Shown piece by piece: positions 20,206-33,288 of a DNA stretch of 64,000 nucleotides. Numbering within the stretch: position 1 is the first letter of the stretch; each line of letters begins with the position of its first letter. Location: NCBI GenBank assembly GCA_963717145.1, contig OY970325.1, positions 3,808,001 to 3,872,000 on the forward strand, read 5' to 3'. This stretch comes from an uncultured Armatimonadetes bacterium. GTDB lineage: Bacteria; Armatimonadota; UBA5829; DTJY01. The position numbers were made by a program, and so were the translations under genes. Below the pieces are notes generated by a model. That model was not told the DNA's origin. It saw only the letters and a program-made list of their open reading frames with translations, and did no database searches.

Positions 20206-22608
20206 ATGAATCGGCGTGTGCTTCTCTGGGCAGTACTCGTTCTTGCGTTCTCGGCAGTCTCCATGGCCGCCAACGCTCCGTCCGTTACGATCCGCTGGGA
20301 CACCATCGGCATCGCGCGCGAGGGCAGCCAGGCGGTCCCACAAGTATACACGCTTGGAACGCCCCTCAGTTTCCCGATGGAGATCGGCGTCGATGAATCC
20401 GGCCGGCTCTATATCTACGATGAGTTGCGTCAATGCATCAGCAGGTTCGCACCCACCGGCGAACTCGACAAGTCCTGGCTGGAGGACACCGGGCCGGGGC
20501 GGCTGGACGGCTTCCACGAGCTATCCATCCTGTCTGATGAGAGAGTGCTCATGTGCTCGGGTTTCTGGCCCGGGTACATGCTCAAGTTCGGCCCCGATCC
20601 TGAGAAAGTCGACCGATTGCCCGGCGTGCAGACGGCCAGAGGATTTGCCGCGTGGGACGACGGCTCCTATCTGATATGCGAGTCCATCCAGGACGGCAAG
20701 TCCTACCGCGCGCATGTCTACTCGGCGACGGGCGAGTTGCAGACGAGCTGGGATACGCCAAAGCCCGAGTCGGTCGCAATCGGCCCGGACAACCTGATCT
20801 ACGTTGTCACGAGTATCCAATCGGAGATCCGGGTCTGCGACCGGAAGGGCAAACACACCAAGACGATCGACGTCAAGCCCGCGTTCACCGATCTGGGGGC
20901 GGCCTATACGACTACAGCCAGCATGGCTATCGATCGCAACGGCGACATCTACCTGTCGGATCGCATGTACATCGTGCGGCTGGACAGGAATGGCAGACCG
21001 CTCGCTCGCTGGCAACCCGCATCGACCTCGTCTCGGCCGGTCGGTGCCACAGAGGTGGGCCGGATAGCCGTCCGAAACGGTCTCGTGTATGCGCTGATCA
21101 GCCGGTTCTCCAGCGATACCGAGGTCCAGGCGTACACCGCGGACGGTCAGTGCATCGCACGGTATCAGCCGGCGAAACTACCACTCGACCTACCTGCGAA
21201 GATCGAAATGGGCGCTGATGGCAGCTACATCGTAGGTCAAAACAGCGTCGTATCCGACCGACGCTCACTAGTCTTCGATTCTGCCGACAAGCCGATCCCT
21301 GATGTGGATACGGACAGCTTCCATGGCCTCGCGCCTTGCCCGACAGGCGGCTACTATACCCATGATTATACAGGCATGCTATGGGTCAGCGCCGATCGCA
21401 AGAGTTCCAGAGTGGTGTTCGATTTCAACAAGGATGCGGAACGTATGTATCAGACATGCACGGACGAGGCGACCGGCCGAACCTGGGTTCTGTGCTTCGA
21501 TTTGGAGCTGATCTGCATCGACCCCGATGGACAGGTGGCCAACCGTGTCCAGTTGCCGAAGGACATGGGCATAAAGGCCTACGGCTACATGGCGGTCGAC
21601 CCCGGAGGATTCCTCTACATCTGCAGTACCGAAGACCACCAGATACGCAAGTTCAAGCTGGACGGCACGTACGTCGGCGCGCTCGGGAAGATGGGCGCCG
21701 GAATCGGCGAACTCCGCAGACCTAGAGGGATCGACGTCGATTCTGAGGGGCGACTGTTGGTGTGCGACGCCCGGAACAACCGCATCCAAGTCTTCTCGCG
21801 CGAGGGAGAGCCACTCGGGGTCTGGGGGACGTATGGCAGAGGTGACGGTGAACTCGATCGGCCAAACGACCTGGCGATCGGCCCGAACAAGGTGCTCTTC
21901 ATCGCGGACACGCACAACGATCGGATCGTGAAGGTCCCGCTGGCCGATTTCTGGAAGCAATTGACCAAAGAGATCAAGGCCCCGCCCGCATACGTCGCCG
22001 CCGAGAAGGTCCCGATGCCGATCCCCGGCGAGGTCACCGTCGAGGGGATCGTCGTCGCAGGCACGGACGACTTCACCGATTGCGTCTACATCCAAGCCGC
22101 CGACAGGTCCTGGGGCACTCGGGTCACGATGCCCGCGAACGTTCCGGCAAATCGCGGGGATCGCATCAAGGTCACTGGGACGCTCGAACTGAAGGAGCAC
22201 TCCGCGAGATACCTGCAGGCCTCGAAGTCGGAGTATGTCCTATCGGCCCAGAGCATGCCCGGCCCACTCGGGATGGCGAACCTCTACGTCGGCGACGGCT
22301 ACCGGATGGGCGACAAGCGCTCCGACCTGAGCAACCTCGGCCTACTCGTGAAGTCGTGGGGCAGGGTGCTGATGGTCGATCCGCTGAACAAGCGGTTCGT
22401 GATCTCCGATGGCAGCCGGCTCGGGAACGCGCCCGGCCTCGAGGTCTACGGCGGGCAACTCAAGTCGCCGCTCACCCAGTGGCCGAAGTTCGGGCGGTAC
22501 GTGATGGTGACCGGCATCAGCGCGGTCCGGCCGGCCGGCAACGGCACATTCCAGCCCGCCATCCGCCTCCGCGCCCAGGAAGACCTGCAGGTGCTGGAGA
22601 ATGGTTGA
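20206..22608 (+). CDS. Secreted NHL-repeat beta-propeller protein with conserved C-terminal module
   Basis: Signal peptide; NHL repeats 'GELRRPRGIDVD..', 'GELDRPNDLAI..IADTHNDRI'; C-terminal module shared with 29851-31887. Confidence 0.85.
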   Translation: MNRRVLLWAVLVLAFSAVSMAANAPSVTIRWDTIGIAREGSQAVPQVYTLGTPLSFPMEIGVDESGRLYIYDELRQCISRFAPTGELDKSWLEDTGPGRLDGFHELSILSDERVLMCSGFWPGYMLKFGPDPEKVDRLPGVQTARGFAAWDDGSYLICESIQDGKSYRAHVYSATGELQTSWDTPKPESVAIGPDNLIYVVTSIQSEIRVCDRKGKHTKTIDVKPAFTDLGAAYTTTASMAIDRNGDIYLSDRMYIVRLDRNGRPLARWQPASTSSRPVGATEVGRIAVRNGLVYALISRFSSDTEVQAYTADGQCIARYQPAKLPLDLPAKIEMGADGSYIVGQNSVVSDRRSLVFDSADKPIPDVDTDSFHGLAPCPTGGYYTHDYTGMLWVSADRKSSRVVFDFNKDAERMYQTCTDEATGRTWVLCFDLELICIDPDGQVANRVQLPKDMGIKAYGYMAVDPGGFLYICSTEDHQIRKFKLDGTYVGALGKMGAGIGELRRPRGIDVDSEGRLLVCDARNNRIQVFSREGEPLGVWGTYGRGDGELDRPNDLAIGPNKVLFIADTHNDRIVKVPLADFWKQLTKEIKAPPAYVAAEKVPMPIPGEVTVEGIVVAGTDDFTDCVYIQAADRSWGTRVTMPANVPANRGDRIKVTGTLELKEHSARYLQASKSEYVLSAQSMPGPLGMANLYVGDGYRMGDKRSDLSNLGLLVKSWGRVLMVDPLNKRFVISDGSRLGNAPGLEVYGGQLKSPLTQWPKFGRYVMVTGISAVRPAGNGTFQPAIRLRAQEDLQVLENG

Positions 22609-22730
22609 TGGTTGACGAGGGAGGGGGCCGGCTCCCATTCCCCCATCAACCATCAGCCATGAACCATTGACCATGCTGTAGACTGGTGATGCCATGCTCC
22701 CATTAACCATAAACCATCGACCATCAACCA
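22601..22730. repeat. Heptamer palindromic repeat (ATGGTTG)n/(CCATCAA)n, family C
   Basis: Also at ~38476-38540, ~52491-52522 and ~58950-59012. Confidence 0.7.
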
Positions 22731-25444
22731 TTCTCCCTTTGGTCTCCCTGCTCGCGGTCCTGATGCTCGCGTCCCTCTCCCAGGCGCAGGGCCTCATGCT
22801 CGACAAGTGCCTCGACGACCTGGCGGAGAAGGGGTCGCTCGGCCCGGTGGTCGCGGTCATGCACGCGCCGGTCGCCGGGACCGCCGATCTGTCGTCGCTG
22901 GAGGGACTCGCCAAGACCTTCGGCCTCAAGCTCTTCGAGCAGGACGGCATCCACGTCCTCGGCCCGGCGGAGTGCCTGCATCTGTATGACTTGTCACCAT
23001 ACTTCCCCAAAGAGCCCCTCAAGGAGTCGCTCAGCCCGGAAGACGAACTGATCTCCAGCTTCACCCCCGAGCAACTCAAGGCGATCGGCACGCACGACGG
23101 CCTGCATTTCGCCGACCTGTCGGGTAAGCAGCAGGCCATCCTGCGGCGCATGTTCACCGGCAAGATCACCCTGCTCAAGCGGACCGACGAGCCGCCGAAG
23201 ACAAGCGACCTCATGACGCCCTCGCCGCCGACACTCGGGAGTGAGACGGAGGCTCCTCCACTTCCAAATCGATCGGAGGTCCTGCGCGAATCCCTGCGCA
23301 ATGCCGAGAGGATCGCCGTGAGCAATGTGCCGGTCGATGATCTCACTCTCACCGGTTCGCTGATATACGGCACCGCGATCACTGAGGTCGGCAGTGATGA
23401 CGAGTTCGGCTGCCAGCTCGAGGGACCGGATATTCCCCTCTGGGACACGACAGAGCATAACATCATCGTTCGTTCAGACCGCGAGACGCCGCCGAAGGCA
23501 CCCCCGCCATTCGGTCCGAACATGCTGAAGCCGTCCCATCTCGACTACGAACGCCCCGAACTGCAGAAGCAGACTGAGTTCGCCACCCGGACCAGCCTCG
23601 GCGAAGTGATCGCTCTTGCAGCGACGGAGAGCGGTCTGCCGCTCTCCGTCGGTCCCGGCTCGGAGCAAGTGCTGTTGTACGTGAGAGCGAGCACTGAGTC
23701 CATTGGACAGGTGCTGAAAGCAGTTTCGTTGGCGACCGGGGGCACGTGGCGCGAGATCAGCGATCTGTTCGTCTTCACGCTCGATCTCACGGGCCTGGGG
23801 GCGTTCGGCAAGCGGGCTGCCGATCTGGATGCCCTCTCCCAGACAGCCGGGGAGTACGCCGAGATGTCCTTCGATGCGCCGCTGGCGCGCGAGGCCATGC
23901 TGAACCTTCCGCCGATGCCAGGCGCGAAGTTCTCCCTGACGCCTCAGCAGATCACGGACCTTACCGACTGCTGGATGAGCGATCCAACGCCGGCCGCCTG
24001 CAGGATTTCATGGCAAGCCCTGACCCCGGAACAGCAGGCTCTGCTAGTTGGCGAGTGCCCTGAGATGAAGGATGCGCAGCCCGATCGGCTGCGAGTCGAA
24101 ATGTGGGTTGGCGCGGAGTTCATCATTCATTTCCCAGCCGTTGGGAATGCCGTCGCCGGCTTCTATCCGGCCAGGAGTACCTTCTTGTATGATGCGATGA
24201 CCCCTGAACAGCCTTGGTACTCCTCGGAGTTCGAGCCTCGTGTCTGGCCGAAGGGATCGAAGATTCCAATGCCTGCGGGAACTCGGGGGCTGCTCTACAG
24301 AGTATCGAAGTCCGATACGCCCGCGTCCATCGTAACAGGCATCGAGAGGTATGGTTTCAACACACTGCTTGTCCGTGTCTTCTCCGATGGCTATACCGTC
24401 TGTCCGAGTCAGCAGTTTCCGCAGCTTCCCGGTCTGAAAGCGGACGACTTCCTGCGCAACCTGATCGCCGTCGCCCATGCCCGGGATATCAGGGTAGTTG
24501 GCGTGATAGATGCCCTGCGCTGGTCGGATGGCGACCCGAAACACTGGCTCTACAAGCAGTGGGAACTGACAGATGTGGACATCACCGGCCGTATGAGCAC
24601 GGAATGGATGGCCCAGCGGACGACGGACTTCGAGGAGGGAGCCTTCTACGAGCGCATGGGCCACGGCGATGCCTTCGACGGCGATTTCGTGACCCCATTC
24701 CACCCGTCTGTCCGGCAGAAGCTCTCGGCGCTTGTCGATGAACTCAAGACCTACGATCTTGACGGCATCGCTTTCGACCACACATCAATCGTTCACCAGG
24801 CGTCCTCGTGGGATTCCGACGGATCTGCCAGCGACGGGCAGATCGGGTTCCACGAGCTTGCCCGATCAGCCTTCACAAGAGCCACAGGGGTGGATCCGGT
24901 GGACATCGCCCCACCCGATGCTCTCGGGGAATTACCACCGACGCCGTGCGCTCCGGTTGTGGCCGGTACTGCCTCACAGGCGGCAAAATGGGATGTGTTC
25001 TACCGGGGCGCTTGTGATGCGCTCTTGGACGTGCTGGTCGAGGACTGTCGCAAGTCCGTGCCGGGCCGCCCGATCTGGGTCGTAGACACATACCGGGACA
25101 TCAGATATCTGGAGCCTGTGGCCACGCATGACTGGGGTGAGTTCCAGGGCAGAATCAGCAGGGTGGTCGGCTGCAGCCAGGCCGAGGAGCCTGAGCATAC
25201 AGGCGAAGACATCCAGGGTATCCAACTGGTCCGCATCATCGACGAACTCGACCTGCTATACATCGCCAGCGAGATTGCCCGCATGCAAGAGAGGACCTTC
25301 CCCGGTATGCTCGGAGAGGAAGACCTCGGGTCGCCGCCGGAGACCCCGATCAAGGACATCATCCTCGATTTCCCGTGCAGCGAAAAACGAAGAACCGAGT
25401 TCCTCAAGCTCCTCGAAACCGCCCGCCCCGAGAAAACCCGGTAA
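22694..25444 (+). CDS. Large secreted protein with duplicated N-terminal module and C-terminal GHL10/DUF187-like barrel
   Basis: Signal-like hydrophobic stretch; 'GFNTLLVRVFSDG', 'LIAVAHARDIRV', 'P.VRQKL..LVDEL..YDLDGIAFD'; start uncertain. Confidence 0.7.
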   Translation: MLPLTINHRPSTILPLVSLLAVLMLASLSQAQGLMLDKCLDDLAEKGSLGPVVAVMHAPVAGTADLSSLEGLAKTFGLKLFEQDGIHVLGPAECLHLYDLSPYFPKEPLKESLSPEDELISSFTPEQLKAIGTHDGLHFADLSGKQQAILRRMFTGKITLLKRTDEPPKTSDLMTPSPPTLGSETEAPPLPNRSEVLRESLRNAERIAVSNVPVDDLTLTGSLIYGTAITEVGSDDEFGCQLEGPDIPLWDTTEHNIIVRSDRETPPKAPPPFGPNMLKPSHLDYERPELQKQTEFATRTSLGEVIALAATESGLPLSVGPGSEQVLLYVRASTESIGQVLKAVSLATGGTWREISDLFVFTLDLTGLGAFGKRAADLDALSQTAGEYAEMSFDAPLAREAMLNLPPMPGAKFSLTPQQITDLTDCWMSDPTPAACRISWQALTPEQQALLVGECPEMKDAQPDRLRVEMWVGAEFIIHFPAVGNAVAGFYPARSTFLYDAMTPEQPWYSSEFEPRVWPKGSKIPMPAGTRGLLYRVSKSDTPASIVTGIERYGFNTLLVRVFSDGYTVCPSQQFPQLPGLKADDFLRNLIAVAHARDIRVVGVIDALRWSDGDPKHWLYKQWELTDVDITGRMSTEWMAQRTTDFEEGAFYERMGHGDAFDGDFVTPFHPSVRQKLSALVDELKTYDLDGIAFDHTSIVHQASSWDSDGSASDGQIGFHELARSAFTRATGVDPVDIAPPDALGELPPTPCAPVVAGTASQAAKWDVFYRGACDALLDVLVEDCRKSVPGRPIWVVDTYRDIRYLEPVATHDWGEFQGRISRVVGCSQAEEPEHTGEDIQGIQLVRIIDELDLLYIASEIARMQERTFPGMLGEEDLGSPPETPIKDIILDFPCSEKRRTEFLKLLETARPEKTR

Positions 25445-25511
25445 TTGTACCTGTTTCCCCTGCTGTATCATCTGCCGATAATTTGATTAGGAAGTACATG
25501 ACCAGCGACCG

Positions 25512-25636
25512 ATAAAGGCAAACCCGTCGAAAGGCGGGGACGCAAAGCCAGGATCTAAACCCCGATCCCCGCGTATTGTGCGCGTCCAGCACAATACGGC
25601 GTTCAAAGCTCGGGACATGACGGCCAGGTTGCCGAA
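25512..25636 (+). ncRNA. c-di-GMP-I (GEMM-I) riboswitch with extended P2 insert
   Basis: GGCAAACCCGTCGAAAGGCGGGGACGCAAAGCC..GATCTAA...CATGACGGCCAGGTTGCCG. Confidence 0.88.
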
Positions 25637-25733
25637 GTCCGCTGCATGGGAAGTCAACGATGACCTCCCGAGTGCAGGCCTTCAGCGCGCCTGGTCTTTT
25701 GTCGTCTCCAGGGAAGGATCGTGGGCTGATATC

Positions 25734-25967
25734 ATGGCCCTCGCGGAAGCGGAACTGGCACAACCGGCACACAACCGGCTCGATCTGACTGTGATCGGCG
25801 GGGATGCGATATTCCTCGTGGATCGGCGCGCCGGCCACAAGTTGTACATGGGCCACGAGACGCGTCTCAGCCCGATGGAACGGCGACGCTTCTTCGCGTC
25901 ACTCCAACACGACATCCGCACCCTCTCCCTCGGCGAGTTCTTCGAGAAGCACGGACTCAAGGGCTAA
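25734..25967 (+). CDS. Small hypothetical protein (77 aa) downstream of the riboswitch
   Basis: ATG 25734 in frame with the listed ORF, downstream of the riboswitch; typical codon usage. Confidence 0.6.
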   Translation: MALAEAELAQPAHNRLDLTVIGGDAIFLVDRRAGHKLYMGHETRLSPMERRRFFASLQHDIRTLSLGEFFEKHGLKG

Positions 25968-26113
25968 ATTCGAAATTCGAAGCGCGAAATTCGAAACAAA
26001 TCCGAATGATCGAAATCTCAAGAGGCAAACGGTCTGCTTCCTTGGCAGTTTGGGAGTTTGGCCTTTTCCCCATTTGCTCTGTTGTTTCGAATTTCGAGCT
26101 TCGAATTTCGTGC
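25966..26113. repeat. Family E heptamer palindrome, copy 2
   Basis: aaattcgaaattcgaagcgcgaaattcgaaac ... gtttcgaatttcgagcttcgaatttcg. Confidence 0.7.
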
Positions 26114-26171
26114 TTCCCAGGGCTGATCCTTCCCAAGCGACCCCCTCATGGCTTATAATGGTATCAAAGCC

Positions 26172-28373
26172 ATGACAAACATTCTCGACGAACTGAATCC
26201 CGCCCAACGACAGGCGGTCGAGCATACCGAAGGCCCCCTACTCATCTTCGCAGGCGCAGGAAGCGGCAAGACCCGCGCGCTCACACATCGGATCGCCTAC
26301 CTGATCGGCGAGCACGGCGTCCATCCGCGCAACATCCTCGCGGTCACCTTCACGAACAAGGCCGCTCGCGAGATGAAGGAGCGCATTGGGGGACTCATCG
26401 GCGCTGAGGCCCTCAGCGAGATGTGGGTCGGCACGTTCCACGCCATGTCCGCGCGCCTGCTCCGGATCAGCGGCGAGCACATCGGCCTCGACAGCAATTT
26501 CATCATCTACGACGAGAGCGACCAGGCGGCCGTCATCCGCGAGTGCTTCGAAGAGCTGAACATCGACGAGAAGCAGTTTCCGCCGAAGACCATCCTCCAC
26601 AAGATCAGCGCCGCCAAGGAGCAACTCGTCCTGCCCGACGACTACGCGACGGTCTTCGCCCACAAGTACGATCCGATCGTCGCGCGAGTCTATCCGCTCT
26701 ACCAGAAGAGGCTGAATCAGTACAATGCGCTCGACTTCGATGATCTGATCCTCTATGCCGTCCGCCTCCTCGAGTGCCCGGAGGTCCGGGAGCAGTACCA
26801 GCGCAAGTTTCAGTACGTCCTGGTCGATGAGTACCAGGACATCAATCAGTCGCAGTTCCAACTCGTCCGCGTCCTGGCAGACGGTTCGCGCAACATATGC
26901 GTCGTAGGCGACGACGACCAGTCGATCTATTCCTGGCGCGGCGCGGATGTGGAGCTGATTCTCCAGTTCAAGAAGCACTACAAGGACGCCAAGATCGTGA
27001 AGCTCGAGCAAAACTACCGCTCGACCCGCAACATCCTCGACGCCGCATACCACGTGATCTCGCAGAACGAGAACCGCGCCGACAAACAGCTCTGGACCGA
27101 CCGCGATCCCGGCGCGCTCCTGACCCGCATCGAGGCCGTGGACGAGCACGACGAGGCCGCGAAGGTCGTCGCGCGCATGCGTGACAGGGTCCAAAGCGGC
27201 GAGTTCGGCTTCGGCGACTTCGTGGTCCTCTACCGCATGAACGCCCAATCGCGACTCTTTGAAGAGGCCCTGATGAACTACCGGGTGCCGTATCGGATCG
27301 TCGGCGGCGTCCGGTTCTACGAGCGCAAAGAGATCAAGGACCTGATGGCGTACCTGCGCCTGGCCCACAACCCGATGGACAACGTCAGCCTCAAGCGGAT
27401 CATCAACGTCCCGATCCGCTCGATCGGCCCGACGACTCTCGGCCGGGTCGAGACGTTCGCCCGGGAGCACGAAATCCCTCTATTCGAGGCGCTCCGCCGG
27501 GTCGAGGAGATCGAGATACAGCCGAAACCTAAGCGGGCGATCGAGCAGTTCTCCGTGCTGCTCGACTTCCTGCATGAGAAGCGCGAGGAGTATTCGGTCG
27601 GCAAGTTGCTCACGGAGATCGTCGAGAACACCGGATTCCTGGCCGACTTGCAGCGGGCACAGACTCGCGAGGCGGATTCACGGGTGGAGAACGTCAAGGA
27701 GTTCTTCTCCGTCATCGAGGAGTTCGAGAACACGAGCGAGGACTCATCGCTACGGGCGTTCCTGGAGCAGGTCGCGCTCGTGACCGACATCGACAATCTG
27801 GAGGAGGGCGAGGAGGCGGTCACCCTGATGACACTCCACGCGGCAAAGGGCCTCGAGTTCCCGGTGGTCTTCATGGTCGGCCTGGAGGAGGGTCTATTCC
27901 CGCACAGCCGCTCGATCCAGGACCGCGACGGCCTTGAGGAAGAGCGCCGGCTCTGCTACGTCGGGATGACCCGCGCGGAGGACGAGCTGTTCCTCTGCCA
28001 CGCGTACCAGCGGACTCTGTTCGGCATGAGGGAGCGGGCGATGGCCTCCCGATTCCTGCGCGACATCCCGGTCGAGCTGTTTGGGCGCAAGGAGATCGCG
28101 GTGGAGCCGCCGGGCAGACCCGCGATGAAACCGGGCGTCTCACGCGGCGCGTCCCTCTGGAAGGAGTCGCCGGAGCAGGCGATCGGGCCGCAGAAGCCCG
28201 CAAAGTCGCCGTTCAAGGCGGGCGATCGGGTGAAGCACAACGTCTTCGGCCTCGGGATCGTCGTCACTGCGGAGCCCTCGGGCGCGGATACCCAGGTCAC
28301 GGTCGCATTCGAGGAGGTCGGCATCAAGAAGCTGATGCTCTCCTTCGCCCCGCTCGAGAAGGTAGACCTTTAG
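26172..28373 (+). CDS. pcrA: ATP-dependent DNA helicase PcrA/UvrD
   Basis: 'AGAGSGKT', 'TFTNKAA', 'VDEYQD', 'GDDDQSIY', 'EERRLCYVGMTRA', C-terminal Tudor-like domain. Confidence 0.95.
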   Translation: MTNILDELNPAQRQAVEHTEGPLLIFAGAGSGKTRALTHRIAYLIGEHGVHPRNILAVTFTNKAAREMKERIGGLIGAEALSEMWVGTFHAMSARLLRISGEHIGLDSNFIIYDESDQAAVIRECFEELNIDEKQFPPKTILHKISAAKEQLVLPDDYATVFAHKYDPIVARVYPLYQKRLNQYNALDFDDLILYAVRLLECPEVREQYQRKFQYVLVDEYQDINQSQFQLVRVLADGSRNICVVGDDDQSIYSWRGADVELILQFKKHYKDAKIVKLEQNYRSTRNILDAAYHVISQNENRADKQLWTDRDPGALLTRIEAVDEHDEAAKVVARMRDRVQSGEFGFGDFVVLYRMNAQSRLFEEALMNYRVPYRIVGGVRFYERKEIKDLMAYLRLAHNPMDNVSLKRIINVPIRSIGPTTLGRVETFAREHEIPLFEALRRVEEIEIQPKPKRAIEQFSVLLDFLHEKREEYSVGKLLTEIVENTGFLADLQRAQTREADSRVENVKEFFSVIEEFENTSEDSSLRAFLEQVALVTDIDNLEEGEEAVTLMTLHAAKGLEFPVVFMVGLEEGLFPHSRSIQDRDGLEEERRLCYVGMTRAEDELFLCHAYQRTLFGMRERAMASRFLRDIPVELFGRKEIAVEPPGRPAMKPGVSRGASLWKESPEQAIGPQKPAKSPFKAGDRVKHNVFGLGIVVTAEPSGADTQVTVAFEEVGIKKLMLSFAPLEKVDL

Positions 28374-28376
28374 AAC

Positions 28377-28589
28377 ACAGATTACACAGATGGCGGAGGA
28401 TGGGACGGAAAGGGATTCTTAGCAGGAAACCAGGAATCTAGGAAGCCAGGAAAGGGATTATGGGTTTGGGAATAGGGCCGTAATCCCAACACCCACACCC
28501 TCACCCGTATTCCTCCTGGTTTCCTAGTTTCCTGGCTTCCTGATAAAGAATCATCCGTTCCATCTGCTTTTGATCTGTGTCATCTGTGT
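28377..28589. repeat. Composite nested low-complexity palindromes (ACAGATT.., AGGAAACC.., octamer family D)
   Basis: cacagattacacagat/atctgtgtcatctgtg and aggaaaccaggaa/ttcctggcttcct arms. Confidence 0.65.
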
Positions 28590-28613
28590 TCCAACGGGTT
28601 TGAGGAGGCTGTC

Positions 28614-29630
28614 ATGGAAAAGCTCGGTTTCGGAGTGATCGGTCTTGGGACGTGGGGCGAACTGCACGCGAGGGTCTACTCGGAGGACGAGCGGATCACC
28701 CTCGCGGGCGTGGCTGATATGAACCACGAGCGCGCGGAATCGATCGGACAGAAGTACGAGTCCGCGCATTTTACCGATTACGACACCCTACTGGCCGATG
28801 TGTCGATCAAGGCGGTCTCCATCGTCACCCCTGACTTCGCCCACGCCGAGATCGCCATCGATGCCGCCGAGTCCGGGAAGCACATACTCGTCGAGAAGCC
28901 GCTCGCCACGACCGTCGACGACTGCCAAAAGATCATCGACGCCGCGAAGGCGTCCGGCGTCAAGCTGATGGTCGATTTCCACAACCGCTGGAGTCCGCCG
29001 TTCTACAAGGCGTGGGAATCGATCCGCAACGGAGAGATCGGCGAGCCGCAGCACGTCTATTACCGGCTGAGCGACCGGATCTTCGTCCCGACCGAGATGC
29101 TCCCCTGGGCGGGGAAGTCGACGGTGGAATGGTTCATCGGCACGCACTCGATCGACACCGTCCGCTGGCTGCTGGGCGAAGAGGTAACGCGGGTCTATGC
29201 CGTCGCACGGTCGCGCGTGCTGAAGTCCATGGGCATCGACACTCCGGATTTCTACCAGATCACGCTCGAATTCGCGTCCGGCACGACCGCCGTGATCGAG
29301 AACTCCTGGATCCTGCCGAACACGATGCCGAACATCATCGACCTCAAGTGCCAGATCGTCGGGAGCAAGGGCATGCTGAACCTCGACACGAGCCACAACC
29401 GCACGGTCGAGAAATACACGCAGACGGTAGCGGAGTACCCCGACTTCCTGGTCCTGCCGACGATCTACGGGGAGCAGAAGGGCTTCGCGGCGGACAGCAT
29501 CCGGCACTTCGTGGACTGCGTGCTCACCGACACCGAGCCCCGAGTCACCGGCGAGGACGGCCTCATCGTCACCCGCGTCATCCAGGCGATCGAGGAGTCG
29601 GTCCGGACGCGATTGCCGGTGGAAGTGTAG
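28614..29630 (+). CDS. Gfo/Idh/MocA oxidoreductase
   Basis: 'GVIGLGTWG', 'GKHILVEKP', 'GTHSID'; GAGGAGG RBS. Confidence 0.92.
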   Translation: MEKLGFGVIGLGTWGELHARVYSEDERITLAGVADMNHERAESIGQKYESAHFTDYDTLLADVSIKAVSIVTPDFAHAEIAIDAAESGKHILVEKPLATTVDDCQKIIDAAKASGVKLMVDFHNRWSPPFYKAWESIRNGEIGEPQHVYYRLSDRIFVPTEMLPWAGKSTVEWFIGTHSIDTVRWLLGEEVTRVYAVARSRVLKSMGIDTPDFYQITLEFASGTTAVIENSWILPNTMPNIIDLKCQIVGSKGMLNLDTSHNRTVEKYTQTVAEYPDFLVLPTIYGEQKGFAADSIRHFVDCVLTDTEPRVTGEDGLIVTRVIQAIEESVRTRLPVEV

Positions 29631-29850
29631 AGTCCTGAGATGTCCCCCTTGCGAAGGTGAGCGCTCAATGATGCCCCCTACGAAGGAGAGCGATGATGTC
29701 CCCCTTACGAAGGGGGACCGGCCTCTGGGCCGAGGGGGTTTCCGCGGGCGGACGCACGGAGTCGGAACCGCCAAGACGCCAAGCGGACCCAGGATTGCAG
29801 TCTGCAGTCCAAGGTCTAGAGTCTGAGGTCTAAAGTCTAAGGTCTGCGGT

Positions 29851-31887
29851 CTAGAGCGGCTTGATCTCCGTCACCCGGATGGTCGGATGCAGGCCGTCCG
29901 CATCCCGGTAGCACGAACTGATGCCGGTGATCCGCACGTAGGTCTCCCCACCGAGGCTCATCCCCTCCGCGAGGATCTTCGCGGTCTTGTCGAGTGCATA
30001 CCCGCCGCCGAGGTAGTTCAGCTTGCCCCAGGTCGTCACTAGCAGTCCGATGTTGTTCAGTCCGAGGCCGTCCACGACTCCGCACTGTCCCGCGCCGGTT
30101 GATGGATTGTAGAACCAACCACTTCCACCAATCGCCCGGCTGTTGATGAACACCGGCCGGATGCTCCCGGTCCCGGTCACCTCGACCGACGACGCCTCGA
30201 TGTACCGCTCGCCATCGGCGTTGGTCTTGAGGATGCCGGTCACGTTCACCTTGTCGCCCGCCTCGACTCCATGAGCCGCCTTCTCGACACGTACCCCGCA
30301 CGACCGGTCCTCCGCCTCGATGTAGAAGCACCCGTCGAATGCAGCGGTGACGATCATATCGGCAAGTTGAACAGGAATGCTGTTCGCCACCATCTTGGCT
30401 TCCTTGAGTACGCCAGCCACCCCCGAACACTCGTCCGCCCCGATATCGACCGTGCCATAGAGGATGCGGCTCTCGCCATCGATATCCTTGTCGGCCGGGT
30501 ACACTGCTTCATTCCGCCCGGCGTTGACGCATGGCGATGTTAGCTTGATGTGGTAGTCGCCGGCGGTTCGATCGCTGAAAAGGGGATCGACGGAGATGTC
30601 CCCGGCCCCGGCCGAGGCTAGGTAGTCATAACTCGCGTTACCGTACACACAGTTGTTGCGGAGTTCGGTTGGGCCGGCGTATACCCCTGAGGAGTTGAAA
30701 GCCACGATATTGTTCCACACCGACGAACCGCCCGTGGTGCGTATCCCGCCTCCGGTGGTTGAAGCATCGTTCTCGGCGATCGTGTTGTTGAAGATCCTTG
30801 CGGAGTGGTAAGCGCTGCAACATATACCGCCGCCATCATGTGCACTATTCCCGGAAATCCTATTATTGGCAATCAGAGAGGATCCAACAGAATACACGCC
30901 TCCACCGGAGTTCGCGCTGTTCTCAGTGATGACATTGCCAGTTACGGTGTCCACTCCGCAGTAAACTCCGCCACCCAGCGGGGCATTGTTCTGCGTGATG
31001 GTATTATCAGCAATGGTCGTGTGGGTCAGGTCGCCGGAATACACTCCACCCCCGGCACTCGCTGCGCTGTTCTCGGCAATGAGGTTATTCGTAATGGTGG
31101 CAGCGGACGCATAGCAGAATATCCCACCTCCGCGGGCCTGGGGGATCTCGAGAGAGGGCGCGGTGTTCCCCGTGATCGTGTTGCGCCTGATAGTAGGTGA
31201 CGAGCCCCTTCCGCAAAACACTCCACCACCGCTGCCTGTTGGCGTGCTGTTTTCTGTGATCACATTATCAGAAATGTCTGGCGAGCCACCCTCAGCGCAG
31301 TAGATCCCGCCGCCGTAGAGGGACGCGCTGTTCAAAGCAATCGTGTTGTTGGCGATAGTTGATGATGACGAGATCATGCAGGCGATGCCGCCGCCGTAGC
31401 CTGCCAAGTTCTCCGAGATCAAGTTGTTGATGATGGTCGGCGAGGAGCCGATGCAGAGGATGCCTCCACCGATCCCTGCTTTCCCGTTTCTGATTGTGAA
31501 CCCATCAATCCGCGTGGCGCTCGTCGCCCACCTGGGAGAGATTACCACCGAACCAGCTTGGTTGCCGTCCAGGATGGCAACGTTTGCGCTCCAGTCCCTC
31601 TCATCCTTTGCCATCTCCGTACCTACGAAGCCGCCGTACAGGCCGACGCCGAGTTTGAGGGTGATGTTCTCCACGTAAGTTCCTCGGGCAACCCAGACCT
31701 CGTCGCCCTCGGAAGCGGCGTCCAACCCGGCCTGGACGGTGTGGAACGCCCTGTCCCAGGACGCGCCGTCGAAGGTCGGGCCGGGGGAATCCCACTTGAC
31801 GTAGACGGTCTTCGCGGAACAGGGCAGGGCGGACGTGATGAGGAGCAGGACCGCGAGTACTGCAAAGCCGAATGCCGGGTGTTTCAT
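29851..31887 (-). CDS. Secreted right-handed beta-helix (Pmp-like GGGI repeats) protein with conserved C-terminal module
   Basis: Signal peptide; 'DGASWDRAF', repeated 'NSA..GGG(I/V)YC', 'YHIKLTSPCVNAG..VDIGADE'; ATG 31887 with GGAGGA. Confidence 0.85.
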   Translation of the reverse strand: MKHPAFGFAVLAVLLLITSALPCSAKTVYVKWDSPGPTFDGASWDRAFHTVQAGLDAASEGDEVWVARGTYVENITLKLGVGLYGGFVGTEMAKDERDWSANVAILDGNQAGSVVISPRWATSATRIDGFTIRNGKAGIGGGILCIGSSPTIINNLISENLAGYGGGIACMISSSSTIANNTIALNSASLYGGGIYCAEGGSPDISDNVITENSTPTGSGGGVFCGRGSSPTIRRNTITGNTAPSLEIPQARGGGIFCYASAATITNNLIAENSAASAGGGVYSGDLTHTTIADNTITQNNAPLGGGVYCGVDTVTGNVITENSANSGGGVYSVGSSLIANNRISGNSAHDGGGICCSAYHSARIFNNTIAENDASTTGGGIRTTGGSSVWNNIVAFNSSGVYAGPTELRNNCVYGNASYDYLASAGAGDISVDPLFSDRTAGDYHIKLTSPCVNAGRNEAVYPADKDIDGESRILYGTVDIGADECSGVAGVLKEAKMVANSIPVQLADMIVTAAFDGCFYIEAEDRSCGVRVEKAAHGVEAGDKVNVTGILKTNADGERYIEASSVEVTGTGSIRPVFINSRAIGGSGWFYNPSTGAGQCGVVDGLGLNNIGLLVTTWGKLNYLGGGYALDKTAKILAEGMSLGGETYVRITGISSCYRDADGLHPTIRVTEIKPL

Positions 31888-32123
31888 CTTCGATCCTCCC
31901 GATGGTGGCGCGCGTTCGGGGTTACGGGGCACAAACCATGCCCGAAAACCCCTCCTACAGACCGGGTACTGCGGGTCGGTAAGCTGACGTAAGCTAATCC
32001 ATTTTAGTCGAACCTTTGATGAGAGTCAATCAAAATGGGCGAAAACTGGTAGAAATACCAGGGGGCAGGAGTCGAGGGGCAAGAGGCGCGGAATGAGTGT
32101 GCTGCTGAAAAGAGAATCGGAGA

Positions 32124-32394: not shown

Positions 32395-33288
32395 TCAGTC
32401 GAAGACTTCGATCTTGACCGTCTTCGAGACCGGCTTCTTGATGCCGAAGACATCCGAAACGGTAACCGTGACGGTGTGTACACCGGACTTCGGGTACTTG
32501 TGGTAGACGACCTCGCCGATCGCGTCCTCCTGGATGCCGTCGGTCGAATCGAAATCCCAGGCGTACCTCAGGGCCGCGGCGCCGCCGTCGCTGTGCGGTC
32601 GGAACATCACGTCATCGTTCGCAGCCACGAACTGATCGAGGCCCGGATCGATGATGATCGGCTTCGTGTCGGTGACGATATGGATCTGGCCAACGTAGAA
32701 CGGCTCCGAGCCGTCGCCGGAGATCACCAGCCGCTTGATCTTGTACTCGGCCCGCTCCTGCTTGCCCTTGAACGCCGCGAGCGGGAACGAGATGGCGGTC
32801 CATCCGTCATCGCCGACCTTGAGCCCGGTCACATCCACCTGACATTCGATCGCCGGTCCGCCGTCGAGTTTCATCACGAGCCTGACACGGCTTACCGGGG
32901 TGCCGGCCGGGGCGCTGGTCGCGCTCGGATCGTAGTAATCGGACAGGAGAGGATCGATCTCGTTGGCGTCATCCAACTGCATTTTGGCCATGAGCTGGAT
33001 ATAGGCGTTCGGATTCTTGAAGTGCTTCGTGAGGTCTACCGCCGAGGCGAAATCGAGCCTGCCGCCTTCGTAGAGGCTCCGCGCGATGATCTTCAGCGAG
33101 TGTGTTCCGCTGTAGCCGCTCTTCGCGACATCCTCGCACCGACCGCTGCCCCAGCTTCCTACGGCTATGCTCGATCCATCGATCGGCTGGCCCTTGTACA
33201 GGACCTGGTCCTGTGCCATTCCGGCTGCCGAGGCTGCGATAAGCAGGCATGCGGCGATCAACAATGCATGAGTGTACGTTGTCTTCAC
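32395..33288 (-). CDS. Secreted PKD-domain protein
   Basis: Signal peptide; C-terminal 'YAWDFD..G.VVYHKY.KSGVHTVTVTVSD'. Confidence 0.8.
   Translation of the reverse strand: MKTTYTHALLIAACLLIAASAAGMAQDQVLYKGQPIDGSSIAVGSWGSGRCEDVAKSGYSGTHSLKIIARSLYEGGRLDFASAVDLTKHFKNPNAYIQLMAKMQLDDANEIDPLLSDYYDPSATSAPAGTPVSRVRLVMKLDGGPAIECQVDVTGLKVGDDGWTAISFPLAAFKGKQERAEYKIKRLVISGDGSEPFYVGQIHIVTDTKPIIIDPGLDQFVAANDDVMFRPHSDGGAAALRYAWDFDSTDGIQEDAIGEVVYHKYPKSGVHTVTVTVSDVFGIKKPVSKTVKIEVFD

Follow-up and report, generated by a model that had tools for sequence, protein, structure and literature searches.

Why should two secreted proteins with unrelated bodies end in one and the same tail? This question is raised by a stretch of 64,000 nucleotides (hereafter the window) of contig OY970325.1 (positions 3,808,001 to 3,872,000, assembly GCA_963717145.1) from an uncultured Armatimonadetes bacterium, in which the genes of an NHL beta-propeller protein (P0001) and a right-handed beta-helix protein (P0002) close with similar C-terminal regions. 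A preliminary description of the window had proposed that this region is a lineage-specific sorting or anchoring domain and had implied a dedicated secretion or anchoring system behind it. The analysis reported here points to a tandem pair of OB-fold barrels, hereafter the OB module, that recurs on exported proteins of one bacterial class, and we tentatively interpret it as a docking module that would stay on the mature protein.

A tandem OB-fold tail shared by two unrelated exoproteins

Comparison of the P0001 and P0002 tails (about 180 to 187 residues) reveals 29% identity over 199 columns with a BLASTP E-value of 1e-11, while no segment outside the tail aligns better than E 0.82, which bears out the earlier statement that unrelated bodies carry a common tail. 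The colinear motifs listed in the preliminary description are all present in this alignment (P0001 given first): YIQA.DRS.G.RV and YIEA.DRS.G.RV, GDRIKVTG and GDKVNVTG, RYLQAS and RYIEAS, LSNLGLLVKSWG and LNNIGLLVTTWG, YVMVTGIS and YVRITGIS, and PAIRL and PTIRV; the module of P0001 also begins where it had been placed, at 22027. The body of P0001 matches Pfam NHL (1.9e-22) and SGL (2.3e-11), and its nearest NCBIfam model, the PEP-CTERM protein ScyF, is reached with 81.4 of 350 bits, far under the cut-off; that of P0002 matches Beta_helix (3e-20) and NosD (1.9e-13). Read by eye, both N-termini show the positive start, hydrophobic run and small-residue site of a Sec-like signal peptide, in agreement with the export that had been claimed for both proteins. 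For P0002 the ATG at 31887, 15 codons downstream of the GTG that opens the reading frame, is the likelier start.

The AlphaFold2 model of the P0001 tail (predicted local distance difference test, pLDDT, 88.7; predicted template modelling score, pTM, 0.86) consists of two OB-fold barrels. This observation is further strengthened by structural comparison with VIA-align, which relates barrel 1 to the RPA domain 3e0e_A (Z 10.8, root-mean-square deviation 1.4 A over 69 residues) and to MCM 4me3_A (Z 10.4), and barrel 2 to the AsnRS N-domain 8tc8_A (Z 10.1, 2.4 A over 90 residues) and to 5gro_B (Z 9.8). The top 50 rows are OB domains almost throughout, and the structural neighbours include RMI, Stn1-Ten1 and RPA cores; as judged from the predicted model, the module is a member of the OB-fold superfamily. 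When the two halves are compared as profiles, they match (hhalign, 95.7% probability, E 9.8e-9, 59 columns), which indicates that a single barrel was duplicated to give the module and agrees with the internal repeat and tandem OB-like folds suggested earlier. Against whole tandem-OB proteins (Cdc13, HIN domains) Foldseek returned template modelling (TM) scores of only 0.2 to 0.44, and the two-barrel arrangement is therefore without a clear solved counterpart. A two-copy complex prediction scored 0.00, which gives no answer for or against self-association.

Absence of a named family

Searches with Pfam and NCBIfam models found nothing on the P0001 and P0002 tails at E <=1 except a tRNA_anti-codon OB match at 0.21. 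The search was widened to alignment A1, which comprises 56 full-length copies of the module from this genome, and Pfam at E <=0.1 returned only sub-threshold OB-type matches (RMI2 in four copies, tRNA_anti-codon in four) and scattered single matches, CBM_4_9 at 0.076 among them; all were at E 0.004 or weaker, except for one LIF-R_Ig-like match (E 5.2e-6) on one copy. The same scan gave no membership in the SLH, dockerin, CBM or PPC models and no match to BOF (PF04076) on any copy. The C-terminal domain (CTD) of the type IX secretion system (T9SS; PF18962 and TIGR04183) matched neither the 56 copies nor the two full proteins, and a genome-wide search for it found nothing, with the control genomes silent too. 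The sole repeated NCBIfam match was PRK06763, seen four times, a model labelled ATP synthase subunit alpha. The nearest ESM Atlas clusters were unnamed or carried tRNA_anti-codon (10% of members) or DUF5689 (22%); the latter was set aside, as no copy matches DUF5689 in Pfam. No description of the module was found in the titles and abstract openings of the literature searched. By its sequence, then, the OB module belongs to no named Pfam or NCBIfam family, in keeping with the preliminary description, which had recognised none.

Bodies, export and anchoring context within the genome

An iterated hidden Markov model (HMM) search over all open reading frames (ORFs) of the 5.37-Mb genome gave 73 matches in 72 ORFs, a few of them fragments of split genes, and so the tail is not a peculiarity of two genes. 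The Pfam scan of bodies took in 55 of these ORFs and revealed a wide spectrum of families: Beta_helix (10), Peptidase_S8 (4), GHL10 (4), peptidoglycan amidases (3), FGE-sulfatase (2) and PD40 (2), along with single instances of a papain C1 protease, GH3, FKBP, a metallophosphatase, an M6/FG-GAP giant, a PQQ propeller, NHL and BNR. In a further ten, Ig, fn3 or other non-catalytic domains are all that Pfam recognises, and 12 match no family at all. A giant ORF of 6,423 residues (L036, 937104-956375 of the genome) also ends in the module.

An N-terminal hydrophobic stretch is present in 47 of the 66 module ORFs of at least 280 residues, as against 27.7% of 3,445 background ORFs. Of the 19 that lack it, nine are preceded by a same-strand ORF with such a stretch that overlaps them or ends within about 300 nucleotides, which suggests frameshift-split gene calls in this single-contig assembly. 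Split module genes, seen as adjacent or overlapping ORFs, occur for example at 5280648-5281513, 1944071-1947705, 3948123-3951699 and 2139451-2143288 of the genome, and the frameshifts may reflect either assembly errors or true pseudogenes. In addition, a 1,102-residue protein made of repeats of about 40 residues appears to run on into the module ORF L053.

The presence of BamA and LpxC identifies the organism, on sequence grounds, as a diderm with lipopolysaccharide (LPS); its genome further holds one SLH match and 37 PEP-CTERM matches, and no sortase was found in it. Among the 66 ORFs only four are lipobox-like and none has a hydrophobic C-terminus, which rules against lipoprotein or transmembrane anchoring of the module proteins. 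Choice-of-anchor domains are named for preceding alternative C-terminal anchors, and the choice-of-anchor Q domain (NCBIfam) was found in nine of the 55 scanned proteins, seven of them over the curated cut-off, ending 12 to 17 residues ahead of the OB module in five of the nine. P0002 itself has a weak match of this kind (NF041518, E 0.00083, 19.6 bits, under the 25-bit cut-off). The nearest NCBIfam models of several bodies likewise describe PEP-CTERM, LPXTG-anchored, T9SS-dependent, autotransporter or S-layer proteins, and the module appears to sit in the anchor slot of its proteins.

P0001 and its closest relative, P0153, share about 95% identity in the tail (196 aligned residues) and 41% in the body; the switch is abrupt near residue 555, and the 95% side takes in the last NHL blade as well as the linker and the module. 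The relatives had been ranked by tail similarity, and the contrast is therefore partly selected. Even so, the mosaic points to recombination, or to a body that changes fast while its tail stays fixed, as would be expected with a conserved partner. Elsewhere, one contig of 13,477 bases carries three NHL paralogues with the OB tail (P0156, P0157 and P0159).

Restriction to one class and co-occurrence with the exosortase system

Searched with the module profile, a set of 1.84 billion cluster representatives yielded 6,036 proteins at E <=0.001, 2,188 of them at E <=1e-30. A motif scan with a 12-row alignment, covering 185,579 species by one genome apiece, gave 223 confirmed module loci, and the best 80 of these lie in metagenome-assembled genomes titled Armatimonadota, Armatimonadetes or just 'uncultured bacterium' or 'bacterium'. 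In a 300-genome sample of the phylum the module was present, with many copies each, in 30 of 33 genomes of the window's own class, and in 18 of 267 genomes outside it, with a single and mostly weak match each; over the whole class it occurs in 48 of 53 genomes at E <=1e-10. Three other genomes, reached through the motif-scan loci, hold 45, at least 135 and at least 143 matches. Judging from these genome sequences, a single class of Armatimonadota has expanded the OB module, and the lineage restriction anticipated in the preliminary description is seen. The dedicated secretion system that it had implied finds no such support: the 270 neighbour ORFs of the 80 loci were clustered, and no recurrent neighbour gene and no conserved machinery gene emerged, the largest cluster (seven loci) being further beta-helix exoproteins and no other reaching more than four loci.

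Across the 53 class genomes, PEP-CTERM matches are found in the same 48 and are missing from the same five as the OB module, and the exosortase follows the same split with no discordant genome. The five module-less genomes (G108, G305, G117, G162 and G319) belong to three genera and are 84 to 99% complete. Match counts of the module and of PEP-CTERM are correlated (Spearman 0.70 over the 53 genomes, 0.59 among the 48). All five module-less genomes keep beta-helix proteins (two to four matches each), secretins occur in every one of the 41 class genomes searched, four of the five among them (G319 was outside that sample), and a second, Trp-rich tail domain described below is present in the three of them that were sampled; the five therefore did not simply lose their secretome. 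Secretins, being present with or without the module, are ruled out as the discriminating machine. The link between the module and exosortase/PEP-CTERM is new, and no system other than this one, itself already known, was found to co-occur.

In this genome the exosortase gene lies in a typical exopolysaccharide (EPS) locus together with a Wzc-like chain-length determinant, a priming glycosylphosphotransferase, EpsI, a Wzx flippase and GT4 transferases. An IS481-family transposase (4782194-4783216 of the genome) is situated about 5 kb upstream of it. A 619-residue protein encoded beside exosortase and EpsI was considered as a partner and rejected; with this query it was found in 21 of 301 genomes and 10 of the 34 class genomes sampled (this genome counted in), with none in families f3 and f4, and it did not track the module.

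Given this association, protein-protein docking has to be weighed, in which the OB module would be the dockerin-like half of a display system built on exosortase-processed PEP-CTERM proteins or another scaffold instead of a polysaccharide. The exact co-occurrence in 53 of 53 genomes with correlated counts, and the finding that no protein of this genome combines the two tail types (the module is absent from all 34 PEP-CTERM ORFs), would suit such an arrangement, as would the frequent binding of peptides and proteins by OB folds, with RMI, Stn1-Ten1 and RPA cores among the structural neighbours. We nonetheless regard it as quite unlikely: no protein with repeated receptor domains came to light as a candidate scaffold, this genome's PEP-CTERM set is diverse (one family of 18 and many singletons), and across the phylum PEP-CTERM systems are common where the module is missing. 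Two tandem arrays of paralogous PEP-CTERM proteins of about 340 to 367 residues, from the 18-member family, were also noted at 1018318-1024796 and 4050251-4056588 of the genome.

Position, copy number and a basic C-terminal tip

In this genome 58 of the 72 ORFs continue for no more than 12 residues after the module, and 14 for 13 to 545 residues. The 150 best relatives present the same picture, 110 ending within 12 residues, 20 having 13 to 60 and 20 more than 60, as do the 78 module ORFs from the 80 loci of other genomes (52, 10 and 15 respectively, with one off its locus). The expectation of C-terminal tails on signal-peptide proteins thus holds for the majority, in terms of both position and the N-terminal hydrophobic stretch reported above, and fails for the 14 ORFs that run on. 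Specifically, the module precedes an FKBP domain in L041, a GH3 enzyme in L075 (module at residues 63-247) and an FGE-sulfatase domain in L052, and 27 of the 150 best relatives carry two or three copies.

A further element is found where the module is followed by a short extension. By eye, 19 of the 20 relatives with a 13- to 60-residue extension end in '[S/T/N/D/R]-P-R' followed by 2 to 12 mostly basic residues, and a pattern search found this PR tip in nine of the 10 independent-locus copies with such an extension, against a background of 5.8% of ORFs of at least 250 residues in this genome. It accompanies about one module copy in eight, after a linker of 24 to 34 residues; examples in other genomes are L103, L106, L109, L119 and L137, and in this genome it is seen on L037 only (3035656-3039612). 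The tip could be a processing or latching motif.

These observations bear on whether the module is a sorting tag of the T9SS CTD kind, which a dedicated and so far undescribed export or attachment machine of the outer membrane would recognise before the tag is removed or undergoes covalent processing. Such a tag would be in keeping with the usual placement at the extreme C-terminus in all three sets, with the many cargo proteins per genome, with the conserved PR tip as a possible processing site, and with an outer membrane and LPS, as marked by BamA and LpxC, which large cargo needs a route across. We judge it unlikely. A sizeable minority of modules is internal or N-terminal, ahead of FKBP, GH3, FGE-sulfatase, a Trp-rich tail or another copy, and the 'always last, single copy' rule of the T9SS CTD does not describe them; about 190 residues in two barrels are far larger than known tags; no neighbour gene recurs in the 80 loci; and secretins fail to discriminate module-bearing from module-less genomes. 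The analogy to a sorting tag drawn in the preliminary description is accordingly not supported, and because modules can be internal and repeated, a retained binding module fits better than a cleaved tag read at the C-terminus.

A C-terminal pro-domain that aids folding, solubility or type II passage and is clipped later would also be C-terminal by preference, several secreted proteases do carry the OB module, and the PR tip could mark the processing site. Bacterial pre-peptidase C-terminal (PPC) domains are held to be clipped after aiding secretion or folding in this manner. For the OB module this is highly improbable in our estimation, given that near-identical tails on bodies diverged to about 40% identity suggest a fixed external partner rather than a variable body, that proteins with little beyond the module exist (L048, 288 residues; L053, 296; L084, 298), and that N-terminal placements occur.

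Comparison with known extracellular modules

The only solved protein with a sequence-level match is the Streptococcus pyogenes nuclease SpnA, whose OB domains (PDB 9sf8 and 9sf9) are, like those of the OB module, barrels on an exported protein; nucleases of the YhcR, ExeM and NucH type presumably have the same kind of OB domains. In a search of PDB sequences, positions 4-87 of profile A1 match residues 20-121 of 9sf8_A (E 0.001, 22.2 bits, barrel 1 only), with a shared hydrophobic-strand, acidic-loop and 'G-I-R-V' pattern; the barrel 1 profile alone gives a weak match (E 0.0056), and the barrel 2 profile matches RPA14 at E 0.01 to 0.06. As described in PMC13601614, the OB domains of SpnA lie N-terminal to an EEP nuclease and serve in DNA binding, for which OB2 and OB3 are required. 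In contrast, the OB module is a fixed barrel pair, acidic and mostly C-terminal, and comes without a nuclease: no nuclease family was among the Pfam matches of the 55 scanned proteins, the other 17 of the 72 ORFs being unscanned.

Another view is that the module is a substrate-targeting domain, similar to a CBM or a nucleic-acid-binding domain, which takes enzymes to an insoluble external substrate (plant or microbial polymers, necromass or extracellular DNA, for instance) rather than to the cell's own surface. Hydrolases are common among the bodies, tandem copies in the relatives suggest avidity for a polymer, and barrel 1 does weakly resemble a DNase OB domain. The bodies, however, act on unrelated substrates or are non-enzymes (FKBP isomerase, propellers, adhesin-like beta-helix and Ig-only proteins), and the 56 modules have a median isoelectric point (pI) of 4.85 and a median net charge of -5, with five of 56 above pI 8, so that binding of DNA or other polyanions is disfavoured. 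Restriction to one class and a link to the bearer's own exosortase would also be unexpected for a binder of a common environmental substrate, and with no nuclease body found among the 55 scanned proteins we think substrate targeting an unlikely explanation.

Other comparisons place the module among display and retention systems. It resembles the T9SS CTD of Bacteroidota in that one C-terminal domain is set on tens to more than 100 unrelated exported proteins of a diderm lineage; the T9SS CTD is a small beta-sandwich, whereas the OB module comprises two OB barrels of about 190 residues, is not strictly terminal and can repeat. In its proposed mode it is closest to SLH, LysM, cell-wall-binding repeats and dockerins, which are retained, non-catalytic, repeatable modules at either end that tie exoproteins to one polymer or scaffold, but it has another fold and no Pfam match beyond the sub-threshold OB-type and chance ones. 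BOF proteins are likewise OB folds outside the cytoplasm of diderms; they are small stand-alone single barrels, unlike the fused tandem pair of the OB module. The PEP-CTERM/exosortase system has in common with the module that it marks a set of exported proteins, and it is present or absent together with the module in all 53 class genomes, although the module lacks a PEP motif, a transmembrane helix and a basic cluster of that kind.

Proposed function

The fold, its internal duplication, the modularity, the exported context, the class restriction and the co-occurrence with exosortase and PEP-CTERM are all directly supported. Building on them, we favour, tentatively and at somewhat less than an even chance, a retained, non-covalent docking module for one lineage-specific partner, most likely an exosortase-linked EPS product. 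After Sec export, the module would stay on the mature protein as a stable, non-catalytic unit and would keep a variety of enzymes and adhesin-like proteins on the cell surface or within the extracellular matrix. It would do so by binding, without a covalent bond, one shared partner specific to the lineage, for which the likeliest candidate would be the exosortase-linked exopolysaccharide itself or something displayed with it.

Several observations weigh against this docking interpretation. The PR tip provides the strongest argument still standing for C-terminal processing of some kind, and together with the strong C-terminal preference it would suit a C-terminally read signal as well. The tail-versus-body contrast between P0001 and P0153 is partly a selection effect of the tail-ranked search, and acidic modules would be awkward if the EPS is also acidic, unless cations bridge both. 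The co-occurrence, moreover, rests on only two or three independent losses, related genomes are not independent, and the module and PEP-CTERM counts may both scale with secretome size; one genome (G230) has 22 PEP-CTERM matches and only two OB modules. Outside the class, exosortase is present in 188 of 267 genomes, where the module is essentially missing, and exosortase is therefore at most necessary and not sufficient for it.

A more far-reaching version of these ideas, which strikes us as unlikely, is an undescribed display system atop the exosortase pathway, in which up to well over 100 different exoenzymes and adhesins per cell would be held non-covalently on exosortase-processed PEP-CTERM proteins or their companion EPS, as a cellulosome-like 'enzyme coat' of this one class. 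The PR tip would then be a processing or latching element, and the Trp-rich tail an older, parallel address of new fold.

A second, Trp-rich tail domain

A second C-terminal module of about 185 residues, rich in Trp (alignment A5, 15 copies), stands at the extreme end of about 15 proteins of this genome and directly follows the OB module in five of them. Examples are located outside the window at 328535-329083 (L057:3307-3858) and 322018-322572 (L081:7-564) and in a gene cluster at 311836-329095, and GHL10 paralogues carry the OB tail, the OB tail followed by the Trp-rich tail, or the Trp-rich tail alone. No Pfam or NCBIfam family covers the domain. Its AlphaFold2 model (pLDDT 93.4, pTM 0.88) has no Foldseek match in the PDB at E <=0.001 (best TM 0.22), and the best VIA-align Z among 48,161 chains is 3.2, which makes it, on the predicted model, a candidate new fold; it is also a second undescribed tail domain. 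It was considered as a class-specific partner or receptor of the OB module and set aside; the domain is found phylum-wide (266 of 301 genomes) and on the same kinds of bodies, and thus looks like an alternative tail.

Features of the window

The coordinates of the two module-bearing genes and their parts are collected in Table 1. Between the two genes lie a secreted protein of 916 residues, a UvrD/PcrA helicase and a Gfo/Idh/MocA oxidoreductase; because these are unrelated, P0001 and P0002 do not form one operon. The 916-residue protein (22694-25444, + strand) has a signal-peptide-like N-terminus and sub-threshold GHL10 and GHL6 matches (24.3 and 23.2 bits) and does not carry the OB module. 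Beyond P0002, a 297-residue protein (32395-33288, - strand) with a signal-peptide-like N-terminus and a C-terminal PKD domain also lacks it.

Table 1. Module-bearing genes and their parts, in positions of the window
Feature	Positions	Strand	Basis and remarks
P0001, NHL beta-propeller exoprotein gene	20206..22608	+	ORF, 800 residues, OB module at C-terminal end
P0001 probable Sec signal peptide	20206..20277	+	About residues 1-24, read by eye and hydrophobic-stretch test
P0001 tandem OB-fold module	22027..22587	+	Residues 608-794, iterated HMM envelope, first row of alignment A1
P0001 OB barrel 1	22027..22251	+	Model residues 1-75
P0001 linker loop and OB barrel 2	22258..22587	+	Model residues 78-187
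P0002, right-handed beta-helix exoprotein gene	29851..31932	-	ORF, 693 residues from GTG, OB module at C-terminal end
P0002 probable Sec signal peptide	31813..31887	-	Counted from internal ATG, translation by eye and hydrophobic run
P0002 weak choice-of-anchor Q-like segment	30430..30549	-	Residues 462-501, 16 residues ahead of module
P0002 tandem OB-fold module	29854..30384	-	Residues 517-693, HMM envelope, second row of alignment A1
P0002 OB barrel 1	30163..30384	-	Row of alignment A3
P0002 OB barrel 2 core	29854..30063	-	Row of alignment A4

Significance

The tail is carried by about 70 proteins of this genome and gives 45 to at least 143 matches in three others, yet it is unnamed and structurally unsolved. 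Naming the OB module would annotate thousands of 'hypothetical' exoproteins in a barely cultivated phylum that is often met in digesters, sediments and groundwater. The Trp-rich tail, confidently modelled but without a neighbour in the PDB, is a new-fold candidate in its own right. The function of PEP-CTERM/exosortase systems is poorly understood, and the exact co-occurrence of exosortase with the module makes a testable hypothesis, namely that the partner of the module is an exosortase-linked EPS product. If the OB module is an anchor, it would define the means by which these bacteria retain their proteases, glycosidases and cell-wall amidases on the cell or close to it, and it would offer a portable display tag.

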